This document shows, in pieces, positions 23,901 to 58,803 of a stretch of DNA of 64,000 nt. The notes beneath the pieces are model-generated. The model did not search any database and had not been told where the DNA came from. It saw only the letters and a program-made list of their open reading frames with translations. Source of the stretch: Naegleria gruberi. Taxonomy: Eukaryota. The DNA lies in NCBI GenBank assembly GCA_000004985.1, contig GG738892.1. One strand, given 5' to 3'. The position numbers were made by a program, and so were the translations under genes. Each line of letters starts with the position of its first letter. The first letter of the stretch is position 1.

Positions 23901-26202
23901 ATCCAAATTGAGTACACCCTCTGTGAAACCAACCAATGCAACAGATTCATGCAAATTCTTTAATTCTCTTGTGTTGAAGAGAAGTGAACTAGAATCGTTG
24001 TGATAAAGAGTTTTCAATTCGATTTGCAATTTGTCAGAGGAAACTTTGGAATTTCTTCTCTTGAAAGCAGCTTGAATTCCCTTTCTTAACATTTCATCTT
24101 GAAGATTTTCTTTTTCAATGGATTGACCAAATATTATTGGTTTCTTGAGAATGGATGTATCTGAAATGCAAGATCCATATTCGTACCATGAAAGTTGTTT
24201 AAAAACTGAGAATGAAACATTGGAAACGTATGGTGTTTTTCCAATATTAACAGAACTCAAATAAACAATCTTGAGTCCTTGATTGCAATTTGAAGCACAA
24301 CTAACAGATGTTGCATTGGCAGAGAATGGTAAATATTGATCATAGACATTGGCACTTTCACACCATTTGAAATTGACCTTGGTTCCATCAAAAACAAATG
24401 AACCACCATTATTAGTCTCAGAATTACCTGCAGTATAATCAATGTAAGATGTTGCAATAAAATTTGATCTTGTTAAATCACCTATAATAGTTTTGAGCAT
24501 TGAATAGGCAAGCTTTCCAGTCAAATAACCCTCGAGTTCAATAAATGTTGGTTGAAAGGTAGAAACGTCCTTTCCAGTTGCTTTCAGATAAGCCTTTCTA
24601 GCTCTGTGATAAGACCTCACAACTGGTACTGTCAAATCCATTGGACTCGGCACGACTTGTGAAATGATAACATTATCCGTATAATATGTCGATGCAAATT
24701 TTAAAGAAGGCAAAGGGGATTGATTCAAATCATCAGTCAGGGCAGCACTTCCAACAAAACTAACTGTCAAGAATATCATTTCACTTGCCTTTTCATATCC
24801 GTAATTTGTTCCGTTAGCAGAGAAGGCCACATTCTTTACCATTTTGATATATTTTGAAAGTGGAGCATACGTTCCAACAAGTACAATTGCCTCAGGATTA
24901 CACTTTCCAATCGTATAGAAGGCATCTTCAACTGCCAATGTATTTCTAGTGTACAGACCTGTAGAGCAGAGTGAAATGTTCATTCGTGAGACGAGGGATC
25001 TGTTAATTCCGTTAAAACCAGCAATACCAAAGGCATCATTCTGATACATGATACTAATTCTTCTGATGAGTTTGGTATTTACAAGCCAATCAACCATGGC
25101 AGCAGTTTCATCATCATACGAAGCTCTCAAATTAATAACATTTGGATAGAAAGGTGTTCTAAGCCAACCAACTCCAGTGAATGAACCAAGAAGTGGAATG
25201 GAAGTTTTAGTAACATCTGGAAAGACTGCACTAACAGTTGGTGTTCCTATTATATCAATATTCAATTCATTAATAACATGTATATGGAGGAATAAATAGG
25301 TGATGATGGTAGTTTAGATTAAATAAGAACAGAGGAACTGTTACTACTTACCAACATATCCAATTAATCCAAATATTTTACTAACATCTACACTTGTAAT
25401 AAATTGAGGAGATGATGAGTTAAGGTAAGGCTGATAAATAAGCGAGCTGGTAGGGGGTGTTGTATTATAGAGAAAGAAGTCGGTATTAATCTTTGTATTG
25501 GTAGGCTCATAGGCATCATCTAATTGTACAATTTTATCACATGTTTACATTATTTTCATCGTTCATGTATTCAATGTATTCAATACCCAAAACATAATAA
25601 TATAAATTAAATACCGACCGAACAACAATATTACATACCCAAAGTTAAGAGTTTCAGCTTTTTGTTATTCCAAACTCCTCCCATAGAATTAACTTCTTCA
25701 AAAGCCGCTAAAATTCCATCTCTCATTTCAGTTCCCAATCTAAAGTAACAATATCATGAAGAAAGAAAGTATATTAAGGGAATTTCAAAAATAATTACAT
25801 GTTCTTTCCAATGCATAGAACTTACTTTTTAGAAAGGCCAGTGAGTGGAGCTGACTGTGCAAACCATATTTCCTGTTCGTTATTCCACAGCACAGTGTCT
25901 TCCCAAGGTCGTTTCGGCGATATTGCTGTTGTTGACGACGAGCCGTTCAGTTCGACCATTATTAAAAGTGTTACTAGGAGGAGGATTGATATTGTTGTGA
26001 TGAAGGAAGAGTAGAATGCTCTGAAATGTTGCTGTTGTGGTCTTCCTCTTGCTGCCTGATGATGAGAATGAGGTAGGCTGTTAGAGAGGCACTTGGCCTT
26101 ATTTAACCTCAATATGTCCACTCGTTGTAGCATGTTGAGAGGTGGTTGCAGTGTATGTTTTTTGTTGGGTTTCTTTTTGCGTGTATCGAAAAGGATATTC
26201 AC
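20925..26202 (-). CDS. Receptor-type class III nucleotidyl (adenylyl/guanylyl) cyclase. It has a very large periplasmic-binding-protein type I (ANF-receptor-like) ectodomain, a single TM and a C-terminal cyclase domain. Proposed exons are about 25826..26100-26202, 25639..25739, 25352..25519 and 20925..25246.
   Basis: C-terminal catalytic motifs FTDVQNSTVLWE, FEVKTNGDSFYVVF and GTTINTSARIE. TM helix IAMIVLSLVIFFSILGCIGIIYW lies about 25 aa before the catalytic domain, with no kinase-homology domain. Upstream exons encode a signal anchor (FITTISILLLVTLLIMV) and the PBP N-terminal signature LGTEMRDGILAAFEEVNSMGGVWNNKKLKLLTL-DDAYEP. All junctions are GT..AG with consistent phase. The 5' start is uncertain. 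Confidence 0.75.
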
Positions 26203-28048: not shown

Positions 28049-31000
28049 ATGTCCAATCAAACCAAGATGGATCTTTCCATCGCTGAGAGAAGAGCCTACG
28101 AATTTCTTCTCCGTTCTGAAGAAGCCAAACGTTGGATTGAAGAAATGATTCAGGAAAAATTCGGTCAAGGCTCATCCATTGCCTACTTTGGTGAAATGAT
28201 GAGAGATGGTGTGGCCCTTGCAAAGCTCGCCAAAATTTTCGCGCCAACCCACGTAAAAAAAATCAACAAGCCTAGTCAGAATGCGATCAAGTTGGAATTT
28301 TCCTTGGTTGATAATATTACTCAATTTTTGAATGCTTGTAAATCAACTGGTTTTAGAGAGATTTATCTTTTTGGTATGTTTTGTTTTTTTGAAGTGATTT
28401 TTATTCATATTTGTATTGTTTACTTGTTGTGTGTATTGATAATTTTTGTGATGATGACTACTTGTTATGATTCATATGAATGATGGTTGTGTGATATGAT
28501 GATGATTGATGATAATATAATACTACAATATAGAGGTTACCGATTTGTGGGAATTGAAGAATGTTTACAAAGTGGTGCATTGTCTCCATTCACTTTCTGT
28601 TTACTTATACACAAATGGTTTGTCAATCAAGATGGAAAGACTCAAGTCACTCAATATTTCTAGGGAAGATTTGGAACGTACAAAGAAAATGCTTGATGAT
28701 TTGGAAAATTCTGGTATCAAATTTGATGATTCCATGATTGAAGGTGATGAAGGTGAAAGTAGCGAAGATTGTGACACTGATGTTAGATCAGACAAAATTA
28801 GAGAATACGTCACTAGTTTGGCCGATCCAGATCATTGTAAAGTAGATGGAGATAAGTTAAATTCAGCCATTTGTGGTGTGGAATCAAAATTCACAATCAC
28901 AGCTTTTGATTCAGATGGTAATTTATTAAAGGGTTGCCAAGACAAATTTGAAGTTCAATTGCAATCAGGATCAACAACATTCAATGCAAACGTCAAAAAT
29001 AATAGAGATGGTACTTTTGAAGTGAGCTACACTCCTCAAGTTGCTGGTGACTATGTCATGACCATTTCTCTCTTTGATGATGAATTGGGTGATGTTGTAG
29101 GTAACATTACAAATAAGAATGCATCAGATGGTGCTTGGAAAGTCAAGATTACAGCAAACCCTGTTTCTGATCTATCAAAATGTGTACTCAAACAACAAAG
29201 AGATAATGCCAAGAGAGTATATAGAGCTGGTCAAGTTATTGATGATCTCATCTTGGAAAGTAGAGACTCATGCGGAAATATTGGTCTTGGAGGTGAAAAA
29301 TTCGCTGCCAAGCTCATTTCCACTGTTGACAAGTCTGTTGTTTTCAATTCTAATGTTTTGGACAATAAGAATGGTCTCTATCAATTCATCTTCCAAATTG
29401 AAAGATCTGGTTCTTATGAATTGGAAGTTACTCGTGGTGATGAATACCTCTCCTCAACTCGTATTCCAGTCTCAATTCATGATTCTGGTAAGACTGATCC
29501 AAACAATTGTCTCTTCATTGGATTGGAAAGCAATTTGCTTCACTTGCTTGAAGATAATGGCAGCGAGTCCAACAAGGTCTTATCTTTGAGAAAGAAGGAA
29601 AATATTGTTAAATTGGAAAGAAAGGCAGGCGATGTCATTAGATTCTTGGTTCAAGCTCGTGACCAATATGGTAACAATCGTGAAGTTGATGGAACTAATG
29701 AATCCACTCTTCCACAACTCGTCTCTGAACAATTGACTGTTATTGCTTGTTTGGAAAGCTCTGATTCACCAACTATTGAAAATATTGACTCTGTTTTGAT
29801 GACTCCAAGAACTGCCATGGTTGCCAAGAAACTTGGTGAATCAGGTACTCAATCCGATGGTGTTGCTGTTGATTCTACAATTGTCAAGATTCCACACATG
29901 AAGAACGACTCTGAATTGAGTGTATTGTTGGGTCTTGAACAATATGCCCAAAAGTTCAATGGTTCTCAAGAAATGGAAAAGAAACTCTTTGAAACCATGT
30001 CCAAGTTTGTTTCTGAAAATGGTCATCACGGTTTGTACCTTGTTGAAACTAAATTGGTCGAAAGTGGAGACTATTCTTTGCAATGTAACTTGTTACAAGG
30101 AGATTGTACTTCCACATCAACTGCCGAAACTGACTCTGAATCCAAATCAAAGCCAACTCTCTACGCTGTTGGTCCAGCTCACACTGTTCACATTACTGAT
30201 AATGGTCTCACTGATGCTAGTCAATGTGCAATTGTTCAAAGTTTCTCCAAGGGTGAAAGTGTTTCCAATACTGTTGTTGTTCCAAACAGCTCACTCAAGT
30301 TGGATCTCCAGAAGGATGATTATGAAAATCCAGACAATTTTTCCGATACTTTCAAAAAGTTCCATGCTGGTCGTGAAATGCACATTATTGTTCAAGCTCG
30401 TGACAAGTTTGGAAATGCTCGTAACATTGTAGAAAGTGATGAATTCTTATTGAAACTCACTCCAAAACAAAAATCAGAACAATCTACTGAAGTTATTCCA
30501 GTGTCTGCCTCCTCACAAAAATTCGTTCAAGGAAAGGGTCTCTTTGAAATTGTCTACACTGCCAAGATTGCTCAATCATACTATATGGAATTGGCATATG
30601 TTGACAAGTCTAAACTTGCTCCAGAAGTCACTGAACAAGAAAAGGCAGCTGCTGCTCAATTGATCAAATCATTCCCACAAGAAATTACTGTCACTGATGC
30701 TGCAATTACTGATCCACACAATCTTTTATTCTCTGGTACTGGTATTACTAATGCTGTTCAAGGAAAGGAAAGTTTCTTTGTTTTGAGAATGAGAGATGAA
30801 TTTGGTAACTTGAGACACCAAGGAGGAGATGATGTTAAGGCTACTCTCATTTCTGATGCTCGTAAGCTCGAATCTGCTGCCGAAGTTATTGACAATAAGG
30901 ATGGTTCATACACTGTCAAGTATGTTGCTAAGGCCTCCGGTAAGAATCGTTTCGAAATTGTTATCAATGGTCAACTTGTCAAGAATAATGACATTTTGGA

Positions 31001-33383
31001 TGCTGGTGTTTTCGTTTCACCACCAAATATTGAAGATGCAAGCAATGTTGAAACTATTCTTGATCACGATTTACTCTCTGCCCTCATGAATGCTTTCCGT
31101 GTTGAACAAAAGACTGATAACTTGGTTGAACAAATCCAAGCTCTCAGACAAGAATTGGTTAAACAACTTCGTGAAAACACCAAGATTAGTACTGATGTCA
31201 GAGATAAGGAAAGAAAGATTGCTCTCCTTGCTGAAAACAAGTATCGTGCTGAAGAAATCATGAATCAAGGAAAGAGTGGTATTATTGGTTACTTCCAACG
31301 TCGTAAGACTATGCAATTCGGTGGACCTCTTGGAATTACCTCTGCTGCTGATGCCATGATTAAGGAAAATATCAGTCTCTATGGTAACTTGTTCTACTTG
31401 CTTCAAACTAATCCAAAGTATCTTGCCAAGTGTATTTTCCTCGTTCCTGCATCAGATGTTGATCAATTCCTCAATACTGTCACTTTGACCTTGTACGGTT
31501 ATGCTTTCAATCCTCGTGAAGAATATTTGATTTTGAACTTGTTCAATGAAACTCTCCAACTCGAAGTTAAGAGTTCCACATTGGAAAGTTTCTTGTCTGG
31601 TAACCCAATTCTCATCAAATTGTTGATTACTTATTGTCACGAAAGAATTTCAGGAAAGACCTTCTTGCAAAAGGTTTTGTACGACAAGATTTTGGATCCT
31701 ATCCTCGAAGAAAAGGATCTCAACTTGGATCTTAACCCAATCAGTCTTCTCCGTGATATTGTCTCTCAAAAGGAAGTTGAAACTGGTATCAAGAGCAATA
31801 TTGACTTTAAGGAAATGACCTATGAAAAGGCTATGGAAGCTGATGAAAATGTTCGTAATGCCATCAATTCTAGAAAGAACAGCTTGATCAAGATTTGTGA
31901 ACAAATTCTCAATTGTATCTATGATAACATTCCTGAATTGCCATATGGTTTACGTTTCGTTTGTCGTCAATTGAGAACTTTGCTCATGCAAAAGTATCCA
32001 AATCACGATGATGAAAAGAAGATTAACCAAGTCATTTCATACGTTCTCTTCTTCCGTTATTTGAACGCTCCACTTTGTACTCCTGATGGTTACAATTTGA
32101 CAAAGAAGAAGATTTCTCCACTCATGAGAAACAATCTTGCCCTCATTTCAAAGGTCTTGTTGAGAATTTCTACCTTCAGAGAATTTGAAGCCGTGGATAC
32201 TCACATGTTAATGATGAACGAATGGATTCGTGACAATATTCCATTGTTTAGCCAAAAGTTCTTGACTCCAAGTTTGGAAATCGTTGAACCAGAAGAATAT
32301 CTCGGTGTCAATCAATATGCTGAACTTACTCAAAAGAAGAATCCAAGCATTACCATTACTATTAATGAAATTGCCCTTACTCACTCTCTCCTTGTCAAGT
32401 TCAGCGGAAGAATCATCCCAACTGGTGAAGCTGCCGATCCACTTTCTGACCTCCTCACTCGTTTCAAGGATAAGATTCCAGAACAAGTTGAAACTGCCAA
32501 GAATGAAGAAATTACATTGTCTCTTGTCCCATTCAGTGTCAATGGAAAGGCTGAAGCCACTGATGACTGGCTCACACTTTCACCAGAACAATTGTACGAA
32601 GTTACAAAGGAAAATGTTAGAACTATTCTTCGTTACATTACTCCACTTCAATTGGGAGAAACCGTTGAGGATACCTTGTCAAAGTCTGACTCTTATGCTG
32701 ACGAAGTATTGAAGAATACTGAAAATATTGACAATGAAGTTGCTGGTTTGACAATCAAGAGAAAGGTCGAAGAAATTCGTAAGGCCCTTCCAAAATTGGA
32801 TGAAGCTCAAATCATTACCAAGGAAAATCACTACCGTAAATTGTTGATCGATATCACTAAGGAAATTCAAAATCGTGAAGAACTCCAAAAGAAGCAACAA
32901 AAGGAAGTGGAAAGATTGAAGGAAAGTTTGAACAGTTTGAGATCATATCACTCATTCTTGAAGGACAAGGATGTCAGCTTGGATGAATACGTTCAACAAA
33001 CTCTCAGAAACTATTTCAAGAAGCAAGAAAAGAAGAAGCAAGAATCTTCATCCAAGAGCAACAAGGTAAAGAGCTACAAGTTCAGCTATAAGGATTTGTC
33101 TGAAAAGTACAAGATTATCCACGACATTCAAGAAGGTTCATTTGGTACTCTCCAAAAGAAGGTTATCAAGTTTACAATTTCAATGAACGAAGGAGAACCA
33201 GGTGTCTTCTCAGTTTGTCCAACACTTGCTGGTAATGTCATTACTACTCTCCAACTCAGATTGGAAGATTTGCTCGATAAGCGTGAAAAGGGTCAAGAAC
33301 ATCTCAAGATTGAAGGTGTTGTGCTCAATGTCAACATGACCATTCACTTGCTCAATAAGAAATTCTTATCAAAGAATTAATTT
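28049..33383 (+). CDS. Large cytoskeletal/RasGAP protein with an N-terminal calponin-homology domain, several filamin-type Ig repeats, and an IQGAP-type RasGAP (GRD) plus RasGAP_C region. Exons are 28049..28373 and 28534..33383, with a 160-nt intron at 28374..28533.
   Basis: CH domain AYEFLLRSEEAKRWIEE...DGVALAKLAKIFAP...LFEVTDLWELKNVYKVVHCLHSLS spans the GTATGT..ATAG intron. Repeats carry filamin hallmarks such as DGTFEVSYTPQVAGDYVMTISL and GSYTVKYVAKASGKNRFEIVING. The GRD region reads YLLQTNPKYLAKCIFLVPASDVDQFLNTVTLTLYGYAFNPREEYLILNL. The C-terminus is coiled-coil and K/E-rich. Confidence 0.75.
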
Positions 33384-33624: not shown

Positions 33625-35169
33625 ATGAAAGCCTCATCATCACGCCTCCTCGTCTTGTGTTGTGGTCTATTGTTGATTCTCGGCCACTTGATTGAGGCAC
33701 AAAAGGTAAAGATTGATTCTACCTTTGGTACAAAGAATATGGTGGTGAATGATTTTGTTCAATATAATTTTCCTATTGTGATTCAACAAACACAATGTGC
33801 TTTACAAGTCTCGTTTGATTATAATATTAATGTTGGTATGAATGCCTCTCGATTTGCTTTCACTGCTGAGACTTTATCACCCAATCCATTCGGAACACTT
33901 CATACTCCAGCTACTACTAATTTGAAGATTTATGGATTGTACAAGATTACTTTTGAAGATTTTGATCCAAACACTGGAAGTTTAGATATTACAGTTGTTT
34001 TGAGTAATCCTAGTGGTTTCTTGAATGTTAATCCATTCTCGATGATATTTTACAAGAAGGCTGATGCTACATTGATGGGAGAATTTGTTGATGCTGAATC
34101 TCATGCATTTTCTGATTCTGTCATGATTGCAACTAATTATAACAACTTGTTGACACAAAATTTATTGGTTGCTGGTTTGTATGGTGATTTAGCTCAATCA
34201 GTTCAATCTAGAATTGACAAGTCAAATACTGTTCCAGGTCCAACAACTTTCCTCTTTGACATTCTTCCAAGTATGAGTCAATCCCTTATTATTGCATTCC
34301 CAAATCAAAAGCCAGCCAAGACTCCTCCAACCTTTACTTTGTCTGAATATAATGATTTTGAACCGACTGCTGTTCCAAAGGGTTATGTTTCTCTCCACTC
34401 TTATCAACTCTCCACTTCTGTTGATCCTCCAACATTTTCTGGTTCTACTTGGAGTTTAAGTTTTGATGCCACTGTTGGATTTTTTTTAAATGACGAGAAG
34501 ACTCCTGTTGAAATTCAACCATCAAGTCTTACATGTGCCTGTACTGCAAACTCTGATGAAATTTATCAAAAAGTGGAAAGCAGAGTTAGTACCGATAAGT
34601 TGACTTGTAAGATTGAAGATCCAACAACATGTGTCTATCCAATGATCATTGCTAGATTGGCCCCAAAGGAATCCGTTCCTGTTCAAGTTACTGACATGAC
34701 CTTTGGTCAAACCTTTAGAGAAAAGGTTGAATATGGTAATAAGAAGATGTTCAAGGTTGTTGTTCCTTCTAGTGTCAAGTTTACCATTTCTGCCAAGTCA
34801 CTCTATCAAGGAGAAACTGCAACATTGTTTGTTAATAGTAGAGGCTTCCCTACTGAAACTGTCAATATCGCCAGAAAGTCCATTGATAATAAGGAAACTA
34901 CTGTTACAATTGAAAATAAGGAAGTTGGTCCACTCGATTATTACATTTCCATTGCTCCAGTTTTTGCTGAAGGTGCTGTTATTATATTGAATGTTGATTA
35001 TAGCTCATCTCTGGATGATAACGCAATTATCATTTTATCTGTAACCATTCCAATGTTCTTTTTGGTTCTAATTGTTTGTATGATTTTGGTTGTCGTTCTC
35101 TGTAGAAAGAAGAAGCCAGTTATTGAAAGTGATCCTTCAATGTTCCACAAGCTTCAAGACAATCAATAA
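33625..35169 (+). CDS. Novel type I membrane glycoprotein (signal peptide, about 440-aa ectodomain, single TM, short tail). It is a paralog of the adjacent minus-strand gene.
   Basis: Signal peptide MKASSSRLLVLCCGLLLILGHLIEAQ. Conserved Cys cluster SSLTCACTANS..TCKIEDPTTC. TM AIIILSVTIPMFFLVLIVCMILVVVLC followed by RKKKP. I recognise no known domain. Confidence 0.6.
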   Translation: MKASSSRLLVLCCGLLLILGHLIEAQKVKIDSTFGTKNMVVNDFVQYNFPIVIQQTQCALQVSFDYNINVGMNASRFAFTAETLSPNPFGTLHTPATTNLKIYGLYKITFEDFDPNTGSLDITVVLSNPSGFLNVNPFSMIFYKKADATLMGEFVDAESHAFSDSVMIATNYNNLLTQNLLVAGLYGDLAQSVQSRIDKSNTVPGPTTFLFDILPSMSQSLIIAFPNQKPAKTPPTFTLSEYNDFEPTAVPKGYVSLHSYQLSTSVDPPTFSGSTWSLSFDATVGFFLNDEKTPVEIQPSSLTCACTANSDEIYQKVESRVSTDKLTCKIEDPTTCVYPMIIARLAPKESVPVQVTDMTFGQTFREKVEYGNKKMFKVVVPSSVKFTISAKSLYQGETATLFVNSRGFPTETVNIARKSIDNKETTVTIENKEVGPLDYYISIAPVFAEGAVIILNVDYSSSLDDNAIIILSVTIPMFFLVLIVCMILVVVLCRKKKPVIESDPSMFHKLQDNQ

Positions 35170-35185
35170 ATCACAATTTGATTGC

Positions 35186-36559
35186 TTAATTTATTTGTTC
35201 GTGCATTAGTAAATCGGATTTTCTATTTCTATACACAATAAAACCCAATACACAAACTATAAAAAGTAAAACCCAGTTCAATAGTACTGATAATCCAAGA
35301 CCGCTTGAAACTGCAATTAATTGAGTTTGTTGCAATAACGTTTCATTCAACATAGTTTCATAGTCACTTTGTGGTAATATTTGAATTGGATGAGACAGAG
35401 ATACTCTCTTGTTCCACACTCCTCTCATTTGGATTGTCAAGAAATAACTAGTTATCCTTGTCAAAACAACATTAGAAAGCGGAATCTGTAATTGATATAT
35501 GGAAGAACCAATTCTGTCCATTGCATTAATGGACACTTTCGCGTCATATCCTTTAAAATCCAATGAATAAGGAGCTGTCGGGTGAACATTTTCAAATTTG
35601 ATGAAAATGAAAGGGAATTGAGACGAATATCTAATATCATCACTTGCAAATGTATTCCCAGGTGATATTTTGAATGGCATTGGGGAGGATAGTGAGATAC
35701 GAGAGCATTTACTAACATCACCAGAACAGGAATAAACCTTCGAACGATAGCTCTCCAATTCCAACAGCTTGAAATAATACTTAGATGAACATGAGCAAAA
35801 GAGAGATGGTATTTCAGTCGAGTTAGTAATGTCTTCATCAAAACTAAATCTAAAGTCAAGTGTTGAGATGGTGAAATTCTCAATTGTAAAATTGAATGAC
35901 AGGATTGGTTTCAAATTGATTGGAAAATCCTTTTCAATATTTTTAACATTTTCCTGATTGAAAGTGATAAAACCTGGATTTTGAAGTGGTTTCTGTGGAA
36001 TGGACAGCTCAAGTTTTCCTTCTGTTGTCTGTGTTTCGATAAATCTTGGACCACATATTTCAATTTTTTCCCCAAATCTTAATTCAGATGGCAAGAGATC
36101 AGCATAGACACCCAAAATGAATTTGTTGTGAACTGCAGTAAAGGTTGACATTGGCATTTCATAACTGACGCTGGTCAAAGTTGCTTCCCTCTTTCCATGA
36201 ATTGAATGCCAACCATAATCTGAACACATAAAATCCACAGAATTTGACACTACATTATTCAGTCCGTCTGGATATCTAAATGTAATCTTTACAGAATCAA
36301 TTGAATTCTTTACAATTTCACCCTCAAATATAAAATCAAATCTGCTAATTCCCTTTCTATTCCCCTCATCCTTAAGATAGTTGTTTGAAACTTGCAAATC
36401 AAACGTAACCTTTCCCACAAGCCTAAACTCAACCATCAAAGTTGAGTATTGATTTGTGGAAAATTGACCTGCAAAATTCTTAGGATTAACCTTAATCTGT
36501 GTTTCAAACAACCACATTGTTATTGTCGTATCATCACTCAATGCGCAACAAACATTCAA
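35186..36559 (-). CDS. Novel type I membrane glycoprotein, paralog of 33625..35169. The 5' end is unresolved: the signal-peptide region reads through without an in-frame ATG into the gap-flanking duplicated block.
   Basis: Same architecture and homologous motifs (SFDEDITNSTEIPSLFCSCSSKY..SCSGDVSKCS aligns with SFDATVGF..SLTCACTANS..TCKIEDPTTC, and IPQKPLQNP with FPNQKPAKTP). C-terminal TM LGLSVLLNWVLLFIVCVLGFIVY. Signal-peptide-like LIFLFVILTLLNVCCALS sits immediately upstream of the first ATG. Confidence 0.55.
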   Translation of the reverse strand: MNVCCALSDDTTITMWLFETQIKVNPKNFAGQFSTNQYSTLMVEFRLVGKVTFDLQVSNNYLKDEGNRKGISRFDFIFEGEIVKNSIDSVKITFRYPDGLNNVVSNSVDFMCSDYGWHSIHGKREATLTSVSYEMPMSTFTAVHNKFILGVYADLLPSELRFGEKIEICGPRFIETQTTEGKLELSIPQKPLQNPGFITFNQENVKNIEKDFPINLKPILSFNFTIENFTISTLDFRFSFDEDITNSTEIPSLFCSCSSKYYFKLLELESYRSKVYSCSGDVSKCSRISLSSPMPFKISPGNTFASDDIRYSSQFPFIFIKFENVHPTAPYSLDFKGYDAKVSINAMDRIGSSIYQLQIPLSNVVLTRITSYFLTIQMRGVWNKRVSLSHPIQILPQSDYETMLNETLLQQTQLIAVSSGLGLSVLLNWVLLFIVCVLGFIVYRNRKSDLLMHEQIN

Positions 36560-36585
36560 AAGTGTTAAAATAACAAAGAGAAAAA

Positions 36586-36748
36586 TTAAATTTATTGTAA
36601 TGAGTTGTGGGTTGGTTTCGAAACAGTGGAGGAATGTTGTTGTGGAGTATTCGAAACTAGATGTAACATTTGTTGGTAAAATTGTACCAAATGATGTTTT
36701 TTATCAAGTTGCTGGCTTGATGAAACATTTGACGAAACTTGATGTTAG
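36586..36748 (+). repeat. Near-identical partial copy of 37063..37290 (the 5' part of the F-box/LRR gene), with a 72-nt internal deletion. It directly abuts the assembly gap.
   Basis: The translation MSCGLVSKQWRNVVVEYSKLDVT...GKIVPNDVFYQVAGLMKHLTKLDV duplicates residues of the 36922 gene and the nucleotide sequence is nearly identical. It runs straight into the N run. Confidence 0.8.
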
Positions 36749-36798
36749 NNNNNNNNNNNNNNNNNNNNNNNNNNNNNNNNNNNNNNNNNNNNNNNNNN
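36749..36798. other. Assembly gap (50 N).
   Basis: A run of n characters in the sequence. Confidence 1.
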
Positions 36799-36921
36799 GA
36801 TTTTTGCTAATTGGGCAGAGCCTTAAAAATCATTGGAGTTTTGAGATTCGAAGCTTATTGGAAGTTAAATAGTAGCTCTTTACAATTCCTGAACAATTAG
36901 GAAAGTTTCTTTTTAAAAAAA

Positions 36922-38188
36922 ATGTTCAAAATGGATGATACGGAGAGGGATATAGGAGAACCTTCTTGTAAAAAGAAAAAATTAGAATTTTTGAGTGCTT
37001 ATCATGTATTTAATAGTGATGAAATTTTGGAAATATTATCGTTCATTCCGAAGGATAATGTTAAATTTATTGTAATGAGTTGTGGGTTGGTTTCGAAACA
37101 GTGGAGGAATGTTGTTGTGGAGTATTCGAAACTAGATGTAACAATTGTAGATTACAAATTGTTGGAAGATTTGAAGGCTAGTCATCATTTAAACAATATT
37201 GAAACCTTACGAGTTGGTAAAATTGTACCAAATGATGTTTTTTATCAAGTTGCTGGCTTGATAAAACATTTGACGAAACTTGATGTTTGTAATTGCCAAA
37301 TTGGAGCCGAAGGAGCTAAATGGGTTAAAAATTTTGAACAATTAACTGATCTCGACATTTATGGTAATCTAATTGGTGATGAAGGAGCTGTATTCATTAG
37401 TGAAATCAGTTGACTATTTTAAATATTGCAAAAAATTCAATAAGTGCCACTGGAGCCAAATTCATTACTCGACTGAACCAATTGACTAGCCTTAATATCG
37501 CCTGGAACTTTGAATTACAATTTGAAGGGATAAAACCAATTTGTCAAATAATGAAACAGTTGACCACTTTCGGTATTGGAAGAATTGCTGTGTTCGATGA
37601 GGGAGCAAAATTTATCAGTGAAGAAATGAAACAATTGACTAACTTGGATATCAACAGCAATATGCTAGGTTCAGAGGGAGCAAAGTACTTGAGTGGAATG
37701 GAAACTTTAAGAGTACTCAATATTGCTGCCAATGATATATTTGATGAAGGGCTAAATATATTAGTGGAATGAGTCAATTGACTGATTTGAGAGTACAGGG
37801 AAGTGAGTTAGGTTTCGAAGGTGTAAAACATATTAGTGGAATGAAACAGTTGACAAAACTTAATATTGGCTGGAATAAGATTGGATATGAGGGGTTACAC
37901 TTTCTTAGTGAAATGAATCAATTAACCAGTATTTCCTTCGAAGTTGGCAAGGACGAAAGTTTGAAAATTGGTATTAAAGAGGCTAAATCATTAAGTGAAA
38001 TGACCCAATTGACCTTCCTTAATATTTGTGGCCATAAATTAGACTTTGAACAAGCCAAACTCATTTCCTGCATGAAACCACTGAAAATCCTTCACATCAC
38101 AAGCAACGACATTTCCACTGAAGAAGAAAAAACACTGCACGATATGAAACAGTGGGAATGTTTAAAAATTTACAAACGTTCCAAATAA
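36922..38188 (+). pseudogene. F-box-like and RNI-type leucine-rich-repeat protein gene interrupted by two frameshifts. It is either a pseudogene or carries sequencing errors.
   Basis: Three consecutive ORFs in frames +1, +3 and +2 (36922..37413, 37410..37772, 37769..38188) all encode the same roughly 28-aa repeat (MKQLTxLxIxxNxIGxEGAKxIS). At about 37415 the repeat AGTGAAATGAAACAGTTGAC lacks 4 nt (agtgaaat-cagttgac). At about 37750 GAAGGGGCTAAA has lost one G (gaagggctaaa). The N-terminus has an F-box-like LEILSFIP...CGLVSKQWRNVV. Confidence 0.6.
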
Positions 38189-38338: not shown

Positions 38339-40287
38339 ATGAAAAGAAACTTTCCCGCCAATTCTCTCGTAGTTTTTATATTGTTGGTGGCTCTTGCTTC
38401 ATCATCATTCCAACAACAAGAAACCTCTTCGGTAACAGTCTATAGTAAGAATAATTATATTCTCAATTCGGAGGACTATTTGAAAGGAGCTGCTGTTGCT
38501 AGACTTGTCGATTCTGTTCAATTGAATGGCTGGTCTCAACTCAATATTTCAACCAATGCTAATTTATTTAATGATGAAGAACAAATGTATGCTGCTGGTA
38601 TGGCTGAAGGATTAGTTTCCTCCTATCAAACCTGGCAACTTCTTCAAAATCAAATTTATGATTGGAATTTCACGGAAAGTACTGGAAGTGTGAAGAGAAC
38701 TCCATCATCAAATTATGTTTATCCAAAGGGAATTATTAATTTCCTTACACAAAATAATGCTTGGATGAGAAAGGAAGCTATTCAAAGAAAGGATCATTGC
38801 AAGTTTTGGTATCATGTCAATTTGATGATGACTCAATTTGATGGTCTTGTGGATGGTTTTTTGATTGGACAACAACGTGATTCTCGTATTCCTGCAAATA
38901 AGTATTTGGATTGGTTTGATTTGTTGGTTTTGCAAGGTATGTTTTTTAGTATTATTGTTAATGTTTAATAATTATTTCAATGCATTTCGCATGATAATTT
39001 TGTTATTGGATTCGGAATATTACATTGGAATATTGATGATTTTAAATTGAAATTACATGAAAATGGTTGAAATATATGGAATAGCTGCTGGTGATATGTA
39101 CACACTTGTGGATGCTTTTGGAAGCTCATTGATGAAGTCTTCTCTCAAGACTCGTGCTGAAGCTTTTGCATCTGGTATTCCTTTGGAAGTTTTCCAATCT
39201 AATGCCTTCACTAGAAAGTATAAAGAAGAGCCACCATACACTGAATGTAGTGCTCTCATTAAGGTTACACCAGATTGTAAAAACATCTTTGTAGGTCACA
39301 CAACCTGGAGAAGATATAACATTATTAACAAGTTCTTCAAGACTCTCACAATGCCACTCAAGTTTGTTGCTGCCAAGACTGTCAGTATGAGTTCTTCTGC
39401 CAGTTTCTTCTCCTCTAAGGAAGATTATTTGGCTATGGACTCTGGTTTGGTTGCTTTGGAAACCTCTCTCAGTACCTACAATACTTCATTGTATAAATTG
39501 CTCAAGCCAGAATCATTACTTTCATGGGTTAGAAGTGTTGTTGCCAGTAGATTGGCTTATACTTCAAAGGAATGGATTGATACCTTTGCTAAATTCTCCA
39601 GTGGTACCTAGTAAGTTTTCTCAATTCATTCACAAAAATATTTAAATGAATAGCAACAATCAATGGATGAGTTTGGATATGAAGAAATTCAAGCCAGGTA
39701 CTTGTCAATTGGAAAAGGATACCTTATGGATTATTGAAGAACTTCCAGGAGGTGCCAATCAAAATGCTGACGTTTCATCAATTGTAAATTCCAATCAAGG
39801 TTATTGGCCAAGTTACAATATTCCATACTTCCCAGAAATTTACAACATGCTTGGTTATGCTGAAGCAAAGAAAAAGTTCGGAAATGAAATGGATTATAAA
39901 TTGTGTCCAAGAGCTAAGATTTTCGCTAGAGAACAATCCAAGATTATCAATGATTGGAAATCATTTGGAAGAGTTTTGCAATTCAATGAATGGCAAATTG
40001 ATGAATTCAGTGAAGGAGATCCAGCTAAATCAATTGCTGCTCGTTACGATTTGAGACCTACCAATGGTCAACTCAAACCAGCTGCATTTGGTGGTGCTGA
40101 TACTAAATTGACCAGTTACAGACACGTCATGAATAGTGCTACTGGTAAACCTGTTACTTTCGGTATGGCTGGTCCAACTCACCAAGAACAAGCTCCATTC
40201 ACATGGAATGATAATCGTTGGAATTCAATTCCACATTTGGGTCAACCAGACACTTACGATTTTGACTGGGTTCAATTCAACAATTAA
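38339..40287 (+). CDS. Phospholipase B-like (PLBD/LAMA family, Ntn-hydrolase) protein. Exons are 38339..38937, 39086..39610 and 39654..40287, with introns at 38938..39085 and 39611..39653.
   Basis: Signal peptide NSLVVFILLVALASS. PLB-like N-domain, then the conserved autoproteolysis/nucleophile context YTECSALIKV and GHTTW. The frame is preserved at both GTATGT/GTAAGT..ATAG junctions (LVLQ|AAGDMYTL and SSGT|YNNQWMSLD). The C-terminal domain has PAAFGGADTK..TFGMAGPTH. Confidence 0.75.
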
Positions 40288-40385: not shown

Positions 40386-41393
40386 TTACAGCACAGTACA
40401 ATTCCAAGAATTATTTTCAGTTTTCTGTGGTGATGGTTCTTGAATTAGTGTCCAATCTTTCAATTGTTGGAAATAGGTAAATTGCAATTGAACGAACCAA
40501 AATGGAGTAAACACATTCTTCATATCCTTTGAATTAGCCTGTACGAAGATTGATTGCCGGAATCCAAATGCCTTTTTCACAGCCTCCTTTGGGTTGACCA
40601 TCTCAGTAACTTGAACATTTGAGTACAAGCCAAGAATAATGCCCAGATGTGGTTGTTTTAGAACCTCTTTAACTGCCTCAAACCATTTATCCAAATCATC
40701 AAGTGTTTCCTTTCGATTCATTGCAAAACAGATAAGAAAATTCAACCATGAAAGCCTTCCCAATTGCTTTACAACTCCAGTCGAAAGGTATCTTTCCTGT
40801 CGAGCAGTATCCCATATTTGATGTTTAAACGCTTCCTCACCTCTAAGAGGAGCAAACGCCTTGACAATAAAATCAACCATTGAGTGAGAATAATTGTCAA
40901 AGTGTCCATTGTTCATTGTCTTTGAAAAGGTTTTCTTTCCAACAAAAGCATCACCTACAAGCATGTACTTGATGGTGTTGTTGTTGGAATTTATGAGCTT
41001 GGGTTTCTCATAAGAAGGACGAAATCTAGATCGATAAAAATCCAATAAATTAAATTGACTTTCTAATACGTGCTCAACGTTTTTTGAATCTTTTTGTTCT
41101 GATGGATTAATATTACCCAATCTAAATGCCAATTGTAATAAATACATTCGAATGAAATACTTTGAATTTCCAATCAACGAAATTTTGTCCGATTCATCTT
41201 CAATATTTCCATTGGAAGAAGAAATTGAAATTTTACATCCCAACAAATTTTCATCACACCTTAAAATTTCATCCACATAAACCCAACATTTTCCCACCAC
41301 TTGATAAATTGCTTGGTTAGTTCCCACTAGTGAAGCAAGCACATCAATAGGATGCAAAAATTGAATAACTGTGGTCCAAACATCTTGATTCAT
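40386..41393 (-). CDS. F-box-like domain fused to an atypical Ras-superfamily (Rab-like) small GTPase domain.
   Basis: N-terminal DVWTTVIQFLHPIDVLASLVGTNQAIYQVVGKCW resembles an F-box (LPxEIL..I...L....DL.....VCK.W). The GTPase has P-loop LVGDAFVGKKTF, switch II WDTARQERY (Arg in place of the usual DTAGQE Gly), a degenerate NKxD (AMNRKE) and ANSKD. The ATG at 41393 follows an A9 run. Confidence 0.6.
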   Translation of the reverse strand: MNQDVWTTVIQFLHPIDVLASLVGTNQAIYQVVGKCWVYVDEILRCDENLLGCKISISSSNGNIEDESDKISLIGNSKYFIRMYLLQLAFRLGNINPSEQKDSKNVEHVLESQFNLLDFYRSRFRPSYEKPKLINSNNNTIKYMLVGDAFVGKKTFSKTMNNGHFDNYSHSMVDFIVKAFAPLRGEEAFKHQIWDTARQERYLSTGVVKQLGRLSWLNFLICFAMNRKETLDDLDKWFEAVKEVLKQPHLGIILGLYSNVQVTEMVNPKEAVKKAFGFRQSIFVQANSKDMKNVFTPFWFVQLQFTYFQQLKDWTLIQEPSPQKTENNSWNCTVL

Positions 41394-41957
41394 TTTTTTT
41401 TGATTGTAAAAATAAAAATTTACAGTAATAAGCAACAAGATTTTTATTTTGTCATGAATCATCTTGTATTAAGATGTTGATGTGATCTGGGAGAAAATAA
41501 ATTGTGCAATGTGCTCATTGGGACAAATTTTAAAAGTTGTAACTAGTTAAGGAACATTGAGGGGAATGGATTAAAAACTTGTGAAGCAAGTTTTGACACT
41601 TTCTACCAACCAAGTGGGTGTTGTCCTTTAATATTAAGGACATAATTCAACTTGTCCTTTTTCTATCTAAAAAAATACAGTGGATACAATTTCTTTAGAA
41701 TCATCATCCTCACCAACCCAATAAAACAAAACAACATTCCAAACTTTGGAAGTTGATCCTTCCCAAATTCAAAATGACAAAGAGAAATACTTCCCAGAAC
41801 TATTTGTTGAAGATGAACAAGATGTAATCATACAAATTAGTCAAAAGTCAGATTGAAGAATTGTCTATTTTTATGTAGAATTGGACTGCTATAACATTTA
41901 TATTCCATATTTGACAATTTTCCATTAAAACAATTTTTTGTAAATTCAATCAAAAAA

Positions 41958-42526: not shown

Positions 42527-43827
42527 TTAAGGAAGTGAAATTGTTGAAATTGGAGTGTTTGGTTCACTATCGATGGATATTGAAGAATTGGAAAGATTAT
42601 GGAAATTATCTTGATTGGAGGCAGTTAGGAATGTTCCAAATTGTTGGTGATTACTAGTATTGGTAGTGTTTGGTGACATTTCAATTCCTTTTGAGTTTTC
42701 CAAAGCTCTATTTGTTTTGTGTTCAAAGTTGACTGCCTTAATGGCATTCTTGACCATCCTTTTCATTTCACTGATAGGTCCAAAGAGGATACACAAACCA
42801 ACAATGAAAATCCATGTAGCAATTGCCTTTCCAATTAACGAAACCACTTGAAAGTAAACTGAAACATTCGAAACTTCTCCTATAAACGAAATCAATTCCA
42901 TCAAACACAAGAAAACAGCAATCAAAGCAACTAAACTCACAATGATAACAATTCTAATAATTGCCTTCTTACTAGTTTCCTTCAAATAATGTCCAGAATT
43001 TTCACTACTTTGTTTCAAATGTCTGATTAGCTGAACGGTTGTCCAAATTACATAACCCAATGAAGAAAGAACACATAGAATGAAGATAGTTGTTGTCAAT
43101 GAATAGAAAAATATAAGAGCTGGTTTGATGGTTGTGTCATTGGTTGCTTGTTGAACTTTTGTTATTTGGTCAACTAGCACAGTAATGATATAACCTATAA
43201 TCACCACTGAAAGAATGATAGGAATGGTAATTATCGATCCAAGAAGAATCTTGAATACCTTTTCTGAAATGTATTTCAACTTCCTGCTCGTTTGCAAACT
43301 ATTTCACATTTAAAACAATTCTAATCTTAAACTAAAACTTACAATATATAACAAACAAACAAGAACTGCACCACCAACCACCAATCATTCACAGCCCATC
43401 CACAATAAATCAATGCATTAATCACTCTCACATGGAGTGGTTTCTCAGAACTGACAAAAGTCGCCACAGGAAAAGCCAACATGTTTAAGATTCGTAAAGC
43501 AAATAAAATGATCAAGATTACAACACTAGGTAACATGATAGAGAAGAGGATGATCTTGTTTTTGGAGAAGGGCCTTTTGGGTTTGATAGGAGTTGAAGAA
43601 GGATTGTTTTCGTCTGGTTTCGTTTTTTGGCTTGCTTTTGATTTGTGTTTAAAGCAGATTAGGAGGGTAAGAATGAATGGAAGGAGAATAATGAAGGATA
43701 GCATTTGAATGAAGGTTACCGAAACCTCGCCAATGATTTGCGCAGTGGACACTGTTTCGTTTAAAGAAGAAGAATTAGATGAAACAGCTTGTATTATGAA
43801 CAAATCAACTAATGACGACATTTTCAA
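42527..43827 (-). CDS. Seven-transmembrane receptor-like protein. Exons are 43344..43827 and 42527..43297, with a 46-nt intron at 43298..43343.
   Basis: Three hydrophobic helices in exon 1 and four in exon 2, seven in total, with loops of GPCR-like length and a Ser/Asn-rich C-terminal tail. The GTAAGT..AATAG junction keeps the frame (VCYI-F-LQTSRKLKY). I cannot assign a family. Confidence 0.5.
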
Positions 43828-50041: not shown

Positions 50042-53000
50042 ATGACAACCTCTACTCAACCGTTCACACATGGTTCATCATCACCCTCTACATCATCAAC
50101 AACTGTTTTACCCATAACAGATGTAGGAGGAGGAGGAGTTGATTCATCATCTAGGGTTGAATTGATGAAGGATGAGCATTATCAAAGAATGGAAAAGAAG
50201 GAACATGATGAAGATGGTTATAGAGTGTTCTTTGGTGATAGACAGTTGAATATGAAGCAGGTTAGGAGGGGATGGTTCGGGATGAAGAGGAAAAGATTTT
50301 CCGATAATAGTGTTTCAACTACAAAGGTATGTTCAACTCAGATGAACTATTTAATATTTATTAATAATATTTAATATTTAATATTTTTTGTAATCAATAA
50401 CATGCTGTTGATTGATGGAATGGCAAATTTTGTGTGAAATTAGTACACGTGGTGGAATTTCATTGTGTTGAATTTATTTCACCAATTGAAACATTTGAGT
50501 AATTTGTACTTTCTCCTAGCTCTGATTTTTGCATTCATTCCTGGAGTGAGTCCAACAACGCCCATTACACAATTACAAATAATTTTCATTATTTTGGTGA
50601 ATATGTTGAGAGAGGGAGGTGAAGATATATTGAGATATCTCAATGATAGAAAGGTCAATAGAAAGATGACGAATGTTTTGGTGGAGGATAAAGTGGTGCC
50701 AATTCACACGAGTAAGGTGAGAGTGGGGGATATTGTGAGAGTGGAATGTGATGAGACTATACCTGCTGATATGATTTTGTTGGGATCGTGTCATTGTGAG
50801 GAGGAATCAGATGGAAGAGTTTCACTTTCGTCCAATTGCAAAATTGAAACTGCCAATTTGGATGGTGAGACAAATTTAAAGACAAGATTTGGAATTTTGA
50901 ATGAAACAGTTCAAATGCCATCAAATCAAACAAAAGAGAATGTAATAATCAATACCTTGTTACAAATTAAGGGAAGTGTCGATTGTGAACTTCCAAGTGA
51001 AAATTTACACAGTTTCAAAGCTAGTGCTCTACTGAAATATTCACAGAATGAATCACAATCGAGATTAATTCCCATCAATCAACAACACTTACTTTTGAAA
51101 GGAACAATCCTCAAAGCAACTGAATATGTCTATGGATTGGTGATTTATTGTGGAAAGGACACCAAAATGATGAGAAACATGCAGAAAGGAAGAGTTAAAT
51201 TCACCTCTGTGAATTTTACAATGAATATCATGATTGGTATCTTGTTTGTGATCATGTGCTGTTTGTGTATTGCCTTTGCAGGAGTTTCGTCCTATTTTGA
51301 ATTCACACTTGCCAAAATTTCAAGCTACACTGGTAAATCTACATTGAATGTCAGCAATGCTGCCAGTGTTGTGCTCTCCATGATGACATTCTTTATTCTT
51401 TTCAATTCGTTGATTCCAATTTCTCTATTTGTGACTTTGGAATTTGTTAGAATGTTTCAGGCATGGCTTGTGAATATGGATAATGAAATGGCAGTTTACG
51501 ATGCTGATCCACATGATCCAGTATCGAGAAAGACACTCATTTCTGCATCTTCACTCTCTTCTGAGCTTTTACCTGATTTGGCAACAGTTGACATTATATT
51601 CTCAGATAAGACTGGTACTCTGACAGAAAATTCCATGATTTTCAACAAGATTTGTTTTGGAACAAACTATGTTCATGATGATAAGGTCAATAATGGTCAA
51701 CTAAACACTTTGATTCAACAATCTCTTAAAGAAACAACTGATCAAGCTCAAACAAATGATTCAAAGAATGAAAATACGTTTGGAGAGGATGAATTATTCC
51801 AATCTCTGAATACCATGCTACTTCTCTCACTGTGCCACAATGTAGATGTGAGAGCTTCTGACGATTCTCAATCTTCCTCAGTGGAATTATTGGAAAATGT
51901 CGAAGAAACTCGTCCATACTATGAAGGAGCTAGTGTTGATGAAGTTGCTCTTGTGAATGGTGCTTTCAATAATGGGTTCAAGTTGAAATTTTACTCTGAA
52001 AAGAAAACCATCGTCTCCATATTTGGAATTGATTATACCTTTGAAAGATTGTGTGAAATACCCTTCACACCAGAGAGAAAGAGAATGTCAACCATTTTCA
52101 AAATTCCTAAAGAATTTCTTCAAGCTTTCCCAATTTACAGAAGGAAGACAGGACTTGAAAATGAAGAATCACTTGTCGTCTGTTTCACAAAAGGAGCAGA
52201 CAGTTTTTTATTCCCATACATTGAGGAAAATCAATCGAATTCAGCACTGAAAGGTAAACTTGAACAGCATATTTTGGAGTTTGCCAAAGATGGACTCAGA
52301 ACACTGTTACTGGCCTACAAGTTTATTCCAAATCAGAATATAGTTGATGAGTTTGTTATCAAGTATAATGAATTGAAATCAAAGCAAGAAGTTCAACAAG
52401 AGTTGTTAGATACATTGGAAAATGAAATGGAGAGAAATTTACAAATTTCTGGAGCTACTGGAATTGAAGATTCACTTCAGGAGAAAGTTCCAGAGACTGT
52501 CAAATTCTTCCTTGATGCTGGTCTTCAATTGTGGATGCTGACTGGAGATAAGACTGAAACGGCGATCAACATTGCAGGAATGTCTAATTTTATTGGAAAG
52601 GAAACTAGACTAATCTATCTTAATGGAGAAGAATTTAAATCAGATCAATGCATGGAACAATTACAAATCAAACAAAAAGAAATTGGAGAAGAGACGGATG
52701 TAGCTCTTGTCATTGATGGATTGGCCCTTTCCTATTGTGTCGAAAACAATGAGAAACAAGATTTATTCTTTGAAATTGTGAAAAAATGCAAGACTGTCAT
52801 TTGTTGTAGAGCTACCCCAAAGCAAAAATCACTTCTTGTTGGTATTGCACAAAGGAAATTGAAAAAGAAAGGATTAGCTATAGGAGATGGTGCCAATGAT
52901 GGTAAGTTTATGGTTAGAATTTGAATTTTTACAATTAATAGTTCCAATGATTCAAAAGGCAAAGATTGGTGTAGGGATTATTGGAAAGGAAGGATCTCAA

Positions 53001-56786: not shown

Positions 56787-58803
56787 TTAAGGGTTTATTT
56801 TGTCATTGTCAATAGTATCCTCCTCTTGATTTTCTGCTTGTTGAGATTCATCATTTCCAAGCATTTGCTTTAGAGCTAAATTCTTGTAAATACCATTCTC
56901 AATATTAAGTAATTGTTGATGAGTTCCCATTTCTCTAATAACTCCTTTTGTCAAAACACAAATAACATCAGAATTGATGACAGTTGTCAAACGGTGAGCT
57001 ATGCAAATGGTTGTTCTGTTTTTCATCAAATTTTCTAAAGCTTGTTGGACTAATCTTTCAGATTCAGTATCTAGAGCAGATGTTGCTTCATCCAATAGCA
57101 AAATCTTTGGATTTTGTAACAAAGCTCTCGCAATTGCAACTAATTAACAAGATTACAAAAAATTTGAAAACTAAATTCAACTTACTTCTTTGTTTTTGAC
57201 CTCCTGAAAGAGAAACTCCCTTCTCACCCAACATGGTATCATAACCATCATGTAAATCCATAATAAATTGATGTGCATTGGCCAACTTGGCAGCTTGTTC
57301 AATTTCTTCTTGTGAAACATTCTCAACTCCAATAGCATAGGCTATATTGTATCTGATTGACTTGGAAAAGAGAACTGGTTCCTGTTCGACAATTCCAATT
57401 TGTTTGTGAAGGAAAATAGGATCCAAATCAGTCAAATCTTCACCGTCCAAGAAAATTCTTCCTTGTTGAGGAGAATAGAAGCGTTCCAATAGACCAACCA
57501 CAGTTGACTTACCAGAACCTGATGGTCCTACTAAAGCAACTGTTTGTCCTTGTTTGATTTTCAATGAGAAATCTGTCAAAACTTGTTGTTGAGGACGAGA
57601 AGGATAAGTGAAACAAACTTTCTCAAAATCAATATTTCCTCTTATTTGGTCAACTGGAATTTGCTTTCCTCCGCTGATAGGAATTGCAGGTTTTCTCAAT
57701 ATAACCTTCAAAAGATGTGTTTCACTAACGTATGACTTCATTAATTGAGGAAAGAAAGTAGCCGATCTAATCAATGAAATGCAACCAATAAGCATCATTC
57801 CAAAAACTTGAAACAATGAAGCCAAACTAGTCAATCCTAAAACAGCTTGATGTCCCGAATACCAAAATGTCAAAGCAACAGTTCCCCAAACAACAACTGC
57901 AGCAAATCCAAAGGCAACTCCATGAACTGTGCTTCTAATAAAACCAACCTTATTCAACTCTTTCAATTCAATGCCATATCTAGTCAACTCTGTCTTTTCA
58001 CCTGCCATTGAGCGAATAGTTCTGAGACAAGTTGTAATTTCATTGGCAACTCCAGCACTTGTTCTTGTTAACAAGGTCATCTTCTTAATGAGATGGGTGG
58101 AAATAATGGACATGGTTGTGTGTGATATTAATGTGAGTGGAATGGTTGATATGAATAATAATGTCATTTTCCAATCACAAACAAGTGATAAAATTAAACC
58201 AACAATGAATTGCATGATTTCTTGCATGAAAATGTTGAATTCATTGGTAAAGACATCTTGAATTTTGGGAATATCTTCAGTGAGACAACTCATAAGGGAA
58301 CCAATCTTTCTGATTTCGAAAAAGTGTACTTCTTGTTGAATGAGTGCTGACATGTATGCTTCTCTCAAACTAATCATATTCGAAACATGTATATTAGAAA
58401 GAGTTTTTTCATACTATGATACTTACCTTGTGCCAATTCTAACATTAGCCCAATTTTGAAAAAGTTGTTGAATTAAAAAACCAACTCCACCACAAAAAGC
58501 AATAATGGTCAACTTGACACAAACTTGATCTACACTTTCGCCTAACATTTCTTGATTACTATTGGCATTAGTAAATGTCTTGATTAAATCTCCAAGAACA
58601 TAATTCACAATAACTGGAATCACACCATAGCCAGTTGATCCAACAGTTCCAATCAATAGAATAATCCAATTGAAACCAATAATTTGAAATATTTTCAAAT
58701 GAGAAAACAAATTAATCTTTGGTTCTCTTTGGTCTTGAATTTCAGTTTTGTTTTTGTCAACAGCAATACTTTTAACCATTTTTTTTTTCTTTAATCTTCT
58801 CAT
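56787..58803 (-). CDS. ABC transporter, ABCB-type half transporter (TMD-NBD). Exons are 58427..58803, 57186..58369 and 56787..57139, with introns at 58370..58426 and 57140..57185.
   Basis: ABCB TMD with [23 protein letters not shown] spanning intron 1. Walker [11 protein letters not shown]-loop, and the signature with Walker B spliced as [32 protein letters not shown] across the 46-nt GTAAGT..ATTAG intron. H-loop AHRL. Confidence 0.85.

Follow-up and report, generated by a model that had tools for sequence, protein, structure and literature searches.

Background

Among the signs by which false duplications in genome assemblies are recognized is a gap that separates the copies within a scaffold (Ko et al. 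2022, PMC9516828), and the combination of copy-specific variant sequence with a gap is the signature of the heterotype form of such duplications (PMC9516828). Naegleria genomes are heterozygous and at least diploid (PMC9928731). Here we describe a locus in a stretch of 64,000 nucleotides (nt) of GG738892.1, from the Naegleria gruberi assembly GCA_000004985.1; this whole stretch is referred to below as the window. At this locus the sequence to the left of a gap (the left contig) ends in a partial, near-identical version of a segment of a leucine-rich repeat (LRR) gene. The LRR gene itself lies to the right of the gap, on the right contig, and in the assembly its coding sequence is distributed over three reading frames. 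We call the partial version copy A and the corresponding segment within the LRR gene copy B.

A near-identical duplicate adjoins the only gap in the window

The coordinates of both copies and of the other features are given in Table 1. Alignment of copy A with copy B shows three mismatches and 66 nt that are missing from copy A. Positions 36586–36673 match 37061–37148 over 88 nt with one mismatch, and positions 36672–36746 match 37213–37287 over 75 nt, again with one mismatch. The missing 66 nt amount to 22 codons, so that the frame is kept, and they occupy 37149–37214 in copy B, a placement that is ambiguous by 2 nt. The initial annotation had described 36586..36748 as a near-copy of 37063..37290 that lacks 72 nt and stops exactly at the gap. 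The near identity and the end point agree with our alignment (36748 is the last position of copy A and 36749 the first N), while the start of the matching segment has to be moved to 37061 and the missing length reduced to 66 nt.

The three differences (36669 T/A, 36722 G/A and 36747 A/T) are all non-synonymous, and the divergence between the copies is ~2%. The last of them, at 36747, is 2 nt from the contig end, and the left contig stops 1 nt later. Since the copies differ at three positions and by a 66-nt indel, they represent distinct molecules and not one sequence that was read twice. A 48-mer of the duplicated block occurs exactly 2 times in the window compared with 0 occurrences expected from 100 shuffles, and the pair is the sole near-identical repeat of at least 40 nt in the 64 kb. 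Since this repeat is the only one of its kind, adjoins the only gap, and stops 1 nt past the last difference, the duplicated block seems to reflect a problem in joining the contigs. A 26-mer from the block had 0 matches in metagenomes.

A tblastn search with the repaired LRR protein (described below) also finds a match to copy A, at 36570–36746. Copy A begins inside the conserved N-terminal motif of the LRR gene and lacks the first half of its F-box-like motif. The 22 residues deleted in copy A form a linker (FLxNIxxLxV) that is kept by the N. gruberi homologues spanning that region. Because it starts in the middle of a motif and lacks a linker found in the homologues, copy A is the derived, defective version of the LRR-gene segment.

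At its left end, copy A runs directly into the initial codons of a gene on the minus strand, whose start codon has been removed, a feature that the initial annotation did not contain. The open reading frame (ORF) of the minus-strand gene itself covers 35186–36559, with an in-frame 5′ extension that reaches 36585. Its N-terminus is hydrophobic and signal-peptide-like (..LIFLFVILTLLNVCCALS), with hydropathy peaks at residues 4–20 and 436–456, the latter a C-terminal transmembrane segment. There is no in-frame ATG 5′ of the hydrophobic stretch, where the frame enters copy A in reverse complement. Up to the junction the left contig reads cleanly, with an ORF of 457 codons. A search with the gene (35186–36585) against 5.8 billion proteins returned zero homologues.

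The two copies thus differ in what lies to their left: copy A follows the 5′ coding sequence of the neighbouring gene, and copy B the 5′ region of the LRR gene itself. The only sequence common to both flanks is the AT-rich 8-mer TTAAATTT at the junction. Copy B begins 262 nt past the gap; the region between them, 36799–37060, does not resemble the left contig, and its first 123 nt, ahead of the ATG of the LRR gene, likewise do not and contain no start for the minus-strand gene. As the left flanks are not collinear, the two contig ends cannot simply be an overlap that was left unmerged. Capture of the gene fragment by a transposon was also considered and set aside, as neither terminal repeats nor other copies are present in the window; the other end of the fragment lies in the gap.

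The plus-strand ORF at 33625–35169, beside the minus-strand gene, is likewise an orphan of type-I-membrane-like organization, whose product starts with a hydrophobic signal and has a transmembrane segment at its C-terminus. The similarity between the products of 35186–36559 and 33625–35169 is weak (BLASTP E = 0.1), and the idea that they are paralogues was dropped.

In the assembly, the LRR gene is broken by two frameshifts

The LRR gene is represented in the assembly by three ORFs in three different frames (36922–37413, 37410–37772 and 37769–38188). A tblastn search with the repaired protein follows the gene from frame 1 to frame 3 to frame 2, with switches at 37407 and 37751, and the corresponding coding segments are 36922–37406, 37407–37751 and 37752–38188. 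Addition of 4 nt after 37406 and of one G in 37749–37751 restores a single frame of 423 codons. This bears out the description in the initial annotation of a gene carried in three frames through a 4-nt and a 1-nt deletion relative to its own repeat consensus: the ORFs, the tblastn matches and the register of the repeat units all agree. Unit 2 of the LRR array measures 68 nt, with 4 nt missing, and unit 7 measures 71 nt, with one nucleotide missing from its G run; the tabulated unit lengths are 24, 24, 24, 26, 25, 24, 24, 24, 24, 29 and 24 residues.

The sequence of site 1 before the deletion was presumably GAAATGAAACAG or GAAATGAATCAG (SEMKQ or SEMNQ), which can be written jointly as GAAATGAA[A/T]CAG, and the intact form of site 2 would read GGGG. 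The repaired protein is collinear with the N. gruberi homologue P0001 over residues 29–318 (BLASTP, 45% identity, E = 7e-66), and P0001 aligns without gaps at both repair sites (ISEMKQLT at site 1 and GAKYIS at site 2). In the assembly as given, the frame of the gene is therefore disrupted relative to functional homologues, as in a pseudogene.

Introns were considered as a source of the frame changes and rejected, as no canonical donor is present and no canonical intron bridges site 1 or site 2. The only short frame-compatible candidate (37400–37455, GTGAAATC...GGAG) would delete a well-formed LRR unit. A collapse inside the LRR array is unlikely, since at the DNA level its units have diverged too far, sharing no more than 86% identity (over 29 nt), and the collinearity of the repaired gene with its homologue also weighs against it.

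Table 1. Positions of the features of the locus and of example introns within the window
Feature	Position	Strand	Description
Orphan membrane-protein gene, apparently type-I	35186..36585	-	Hydropathy and ORF; 5′ end truncated where copy A begins
Copy A	36586..36748	+	Final 163 nt of the left contig; variant of LRR-gene codons 47–123
Scaffold gap	36749..36798	.	50 N, single gap of the window; placeholder, true size not implied
Right-contig start	36799..36921	+	123 nt 5′ of the LRR-gene ATG
F-box-like/LRR gene	36922..38188	+	Three frames; stop at 38186–38188; 423 codons when repaired
Divergent F-box-like motif	37009..37119	+	Residues ~30–66, FNSDEILEILSFIPKDNVKFIVMSCGLVSKQWRNVVV
Copy B	37061..37289	+	LRR-gene stretch of which copy A is a second version
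LRR array	37270..38185	+	Twelve ribonuclease-inhibitor (RI)-type units, mostly of 24 residues (72 nt)
Frameshift site 1	37406..37407	+	4 nt missing, ATTAGTGAAAT^CAGTTGAC
Frameshift site 2	37749..37751	+	GGG where GGGG is expected (GAT GAA GGG GCT = DEGA); 1 nt missing
Introns	52902-52941, 57140-57185, 43299-43342, 39613-39657, 2009-2063		Examples of short GT..AG introns

Origin of the duplicate and of the frameshifts

The initial annotation had left a choice between a collapsed or chimeric assembly and a decaying duplicate. Our results assign the two ideas to different parts of the locus: the duplicated block points to a problem at the contig join, the frameshifts are on statistical grounds better explained by a recent pseudogene than by uniform sequencing error, and collapse of the array finds no support. 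We tentatively favour a contig join in which an allelic or paralogous variant was placed in series with the LRR gene, beside a young pseudogene, and we consider this combined reading to stand somewhat short of an even chance.

According to this model, copy A would be the other allele, or a near-identical paralogue, of the LRR locus and not a chromosomal tandem duplicate. The variant would have a deletion of a few hundred base pairs that joined the first codons of the minus-strand gene to LRR codon 47, and would also bear the 66-nt in-frame deletion and the three substitutions. A deletion is favoured over the insertion of a gene fragment because one deletion explains the lost start codon more simply. 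The left contig would follow the variant and end where it rejoins the sequence used by the right contig, and a contig end 1 nt past the last difference is what one expects of a variant path that rejoins shared sequence. If the assembler then failed to merge the variant with the right contig, the scaffolder would set both contigs in series with a 50-N placeholder and a heterotype false duplication would result.

Whether the frameshifts are real mutations can be judged from the rest of the window. The other ORFs of at least 200 amino acids (aa) span 44,343 nt with 719 homopolymer runs of length 4 or more (43 of them of 6 or more) and contain zero frame breaks. Where other genes continue across a junction between ORFs in adjacent frames, short GT..AG introns can bridge the junction, and several of these are canonical (40–60 nt). 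With a uniform rate of indel errors, the probability of two or more in the 1,267-nt gene is at most 0.0035, a value that uses the 95% upper bound on the error rate, which is partly circular in that ORFs are unbroken by definition. Since the window-wide absence of frame breaks favours real mutations in slippage-prone contexts, the gene is most likely a very young pseudogene, and we lean towards real pseudogenization as the probable cause of the frameshifts.

Apart from this circularity, several observations weigh against our reading of the locus. On the side of the duplicate, the flanks of copies A and B are not collinear and an extra deletion allele must be assumed, one that inactivates two genes on that haplotype. 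On the side of the frameshifts, both sites lie close to the contig end (608 and 953 nt from it), the repaired frame has no further stop in 423 codons (chance ~2e-14 for random sequence), and the LRR consensus and the N-terminal motif are so well kept that the gene looks like a working one save for two indels, which fits a consensus error equally. The lack of further stops hints that pseudogenization is either very recent or not real. Local consensus error near the contig end is thus a serious rival: the same assembly artefact would have occurred at the gap, the frameshifts would be errors in a thinly covered consensus, and the gene would be intact and functional. Coverage is often low near contig ends, and both sites, at 0.6–1 kb from this one, adjoin an unresolved region. 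They also lie in contexts prone to slippage, a G homopolymer at site 2 and a short repeat at site 1 (AATG AAT or GAAA T GAAA). On the other hand, sequencing errors rarely take the form of a 4-nt deletion, the left contig reads cleanly to its junction, and the remaining 44 kb of coding sequence has no indel despite its many homopolymer runs. On balance we regard consensus error as unlikely, though weighty enough to be kept in view. By comparison, the possibility that the three segments are decoded into one protein by programmed ribosomal frameshifting, RNA editing or unusual splicing is scarcely credible. It is suggested only by the intact look of the segments, whereas no canonical donor and acceptor bridge either site, the sequence between the sites (37407–37751) encodes regular LRR units and is not an intron, and the 4-nt and 1-nt deficits would need two mechanisms. 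Furthermore, the DYW-type editing factors of the Naegleria clade act on organellar C-to-U sites.

The duplicate itself might also be a real one in cis, where copy A would be the beginning of a second LRR copy, truncated at its 5′ end and otherwise complete or partial, the remainder of which lies in the gap, in a small decaying tandem family whose repeat broke the contig. Assemblers do break at true repeats, so that a repeat at a gap is expected in this case too, the substitutions and the in-frame indel resemble those of diverged paralogues, and the family is expanded in Naegleria. However, a tandem duplication predicts equal left flanks and copy A is instead joined to coding sequence of a neighbour. 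The ~2% divergence, the exclusively non-synonymous changes and the position of the contig end, just past the last difference, are more in keeping with an allele-like variant, and the window contains no other LRR_6-type gene or fragment. We therefore consider duplication in cis distinctly unlikely. The junction at 36585/36586 may, either on one haplotype or in cis, represent a real rearrangement that set a fragment of a fast-evolving LRR gene head-to-head on the signal-peptide end of the orphan gene, which we also regard as rather unlikely. If true, birth-and-death turnover of an expanded heterolobosean family would have been caught midway, with a fragment and a full-length copy both decaying. 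A purely technical chimera, in which a chimeric clone or read, an amplification artefact or gap filling added sequence from 300–500 nt downstream, would account for a junction that breaks a gene and falls in an AT-rich 8-mer present at both sites, and single aberrant reads do survive at contig ends. One such event leaves unexplained why copy A also lacks 66 nt in frame and has an internal substitution at 36722, and a chimera is improbable for us.

The locus is of interest mainly for annotation, where three errors are likely with the scaffold in its present form: a spurious extra LRR fragment would be called, the LRR gene would be split or dropped, and the membrane-protein gene would be given a wrong start. 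Counting such fragments would inflate the apparent expansion of F-box/LRR genes. False gene gain from gap-flanking duplications has been documented (PMC9516828). If the frameshifts are real, they would add a further, unsurprising case of a lineage-specific LRR family with rapid turnover.

The F-box-like motif and the F-box/LRR content of the window

The repaired protein contains an LRR domain well above the Pfam cut-off (LRR_6, PF13516, E = 1e-25, 88.1 bits compared to a cut-off of 23.4; LRR_8, E = 7e-18), located C-terminal to the F-box-like motif. The N-terminal motif, FNSDEILEILSF...CGLVSKQWRNVV, is common to the N. gruberi homologues. Its scores against the Pfam F-box models stay below threshold (PF00646, E = 0.003–0.008 and 16.6–17.8 bits against a cut-off of 20.5 bits; F-box-like, PF12937, 15.7–16.9 bits against 24.3), and no F-box hit at E ≤ 0.01 was obtained with the full-length repaired protein. 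All seven family N-termini tested match the Pfam F-box or F-box-like models at E ≤ 1, the best with E = 2.2e-5. A profile search of the PDB with the N-terminal motif gave no F-box protein, only a spurious short match.

An AlphaFold2 (AF2) model of the first, 163-residue ORF has a predicted local distance difference test (pLDDT) score of 81 and consists of alternating strand and helix units, with N-terminal helices at residues 17–25, 33–39 and 44–68 (pLDDT 75–82). Foldseek searches with this model list FBXL17, TIR1 and FBXL3 at E values of 0.06–0.35, and all structural matches have E > 0.01. The best among them are the LRR domain of NLRP1 and ribonuclease inhibitor, with a template-modelling (TM) score of ~0.46 and a root-mean-square deviation of 2.8 Å over 107 columns. 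The label F-box-like/LRR is reasonable, and it stops short of demonstrating membership in FBXL. By analogy with FBXL proteins, an intact protein of this architecture would act as a substrate adaptor of a Skp1–Cullin–F-box (SCF) ubiquitin ligase.

The initial annotation had considered the window rich in F-box/LRR proteins, naming the genes at 36922, 53829 and 40386, and had taken this as a sign of lineage-specific expansion. The first is a clear member and the second a weak one. The minus-strand ORF at 53829–56498 (889 aa) matches no Pfam domain significantly (F-box-like, E = 0.086), and its N-terminus YVLRMIFSFLDSWTLIKRAALTNREFY aligns with the family motif in hhalign with E = 6e-5 and a probability of 65%; the ORF may encode a very divergent F-box/LRR protein. 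The body of its product has irregular LxxLxL stretches. The third, at 40386–41462 (minus strand), carries a Ras/Roc small GTPase domain at residues 165–321, preceded by an extension of 160 residues in which neither an F-box signal nor any recognizable domain was detected. Apart from the LRR gene and copy A, the 64-kb window contains no further LRR_6-type gene or fragment, and the evidence for enrichment within it is slight. At the level of the clade the expansion does hold, with at least 13 N. gruberi members of shared architecture; the content of the window, with one clear and one weak member, does not demonstrate it.

Other features of the window

The window is AT-rich (~34% GC) and gene-dense, with ~44 kb in ORFs of at least 200 aa. 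Its introns are very short, 40–60 nt, with GTAAGT or GTGAGT donors and (A/T)AG acceptors. An example is provided by a phospholipase-B-like gene, where the splice ..GGTACCTA|GTAAGT..AATAG|CAACAATCAATGG yields SGTYNNQW. Protein searches with the products of the window found nothing closer than 45–51% identity, and look-ups by exact protein sequence returned no record for three of its ORFs or for the best N. gruberi homologue. The best named relatives of a P4-ATPase ORF are from Willaertia magna (50%), Naegleria gruberi (50%) and N. fowleri (49%), and all further relatives, including Acrasis kona, are at ~33%. These values place the window in a heterolobosean lineage close to Naegleria and Willaertia, and the DYW-type and cyclase genes described next agree with this placement.

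Several other genes encode large or multidomain proteins. A complete pentatricopeptide repeat (PPR) protein at 61917–63977 (minus strand) has E, E+ and DYW deaminase domains (DYW, E = 7e-46); PPR proteins of the DYW type are organellar C-to-U editing factors and are known from Naegleria. The minus-strand gene at 11289–17348 encodes a family-B DNA polymerase of 2019 aa with a REV3 (Pol zeta) N-terminus and a BAH domain at residues 583–713 (E = 1.3e-17), a combination unusual for Pol zeta. In an ORF of 1446 aa at 20925–25265 (minus strand), a periplasmic-binding-protein-like domain occurs together with the catalytic domain of an adenylate/guanylate cyclase, which makes the product a receptor-type cyclase, and the plus-strand gene at 28545–33380 encodes an IQGAP-like protein of 1611 aa with filamin repeats and RasGAP and RasGAP_C domains.

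Comparison with known systems

The LRR gene resembles the ribonuclease-inhibitor-like (RNI) LRR proteins and the LRR domains of NLR proteins in its LRR_6 matches above threshold. It differs from them in that its units have 24 residues and do not alternate between 28 and 29, and in that it is without a NACHT or other NLR domain. Like the FBXL receptors (Skp2, FBXL17, FBXL3 and TIR1), it has a helical motif, here a predicted one, at the N-terminus and an LRR solenoid after it. In contrast to these, its F-box score is below threshold and the conserved L-P is replaced by F-S/N. Its repeats are 24-residue RI-type LRR_6 units, whereas those of FBXL proteins are of a 26-residue, cysteine-containing type.

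Another close system is a family of N. gruberi proteins annotated as 'predicted protein' (P0001, 328 aa, as well as P0002, P0003 and P0007), which have the same architecture of an F-box-like N-terminus and LRR_6 repeats. The window gene and this family have in common the motif F-S-D-D-x-x-x-E-I-L-S-F...C-x-L-V-S-K-Q-W and units of 24 residues with the consensus LTxLxIxxNxIGxEGAKxISxMxQ. The window gene differs in its broken frame; it has 12 repeats compared to 8–16 in the family, and its best relative there is 45% identical. As for the gap, the lack of collinearity between the flanks sets the locus apart from a typical heterotype false duplication, and the likeness lies in two near-identical copies, A and B, that are on one scaffold, have a gap between them and differ at variant sites.

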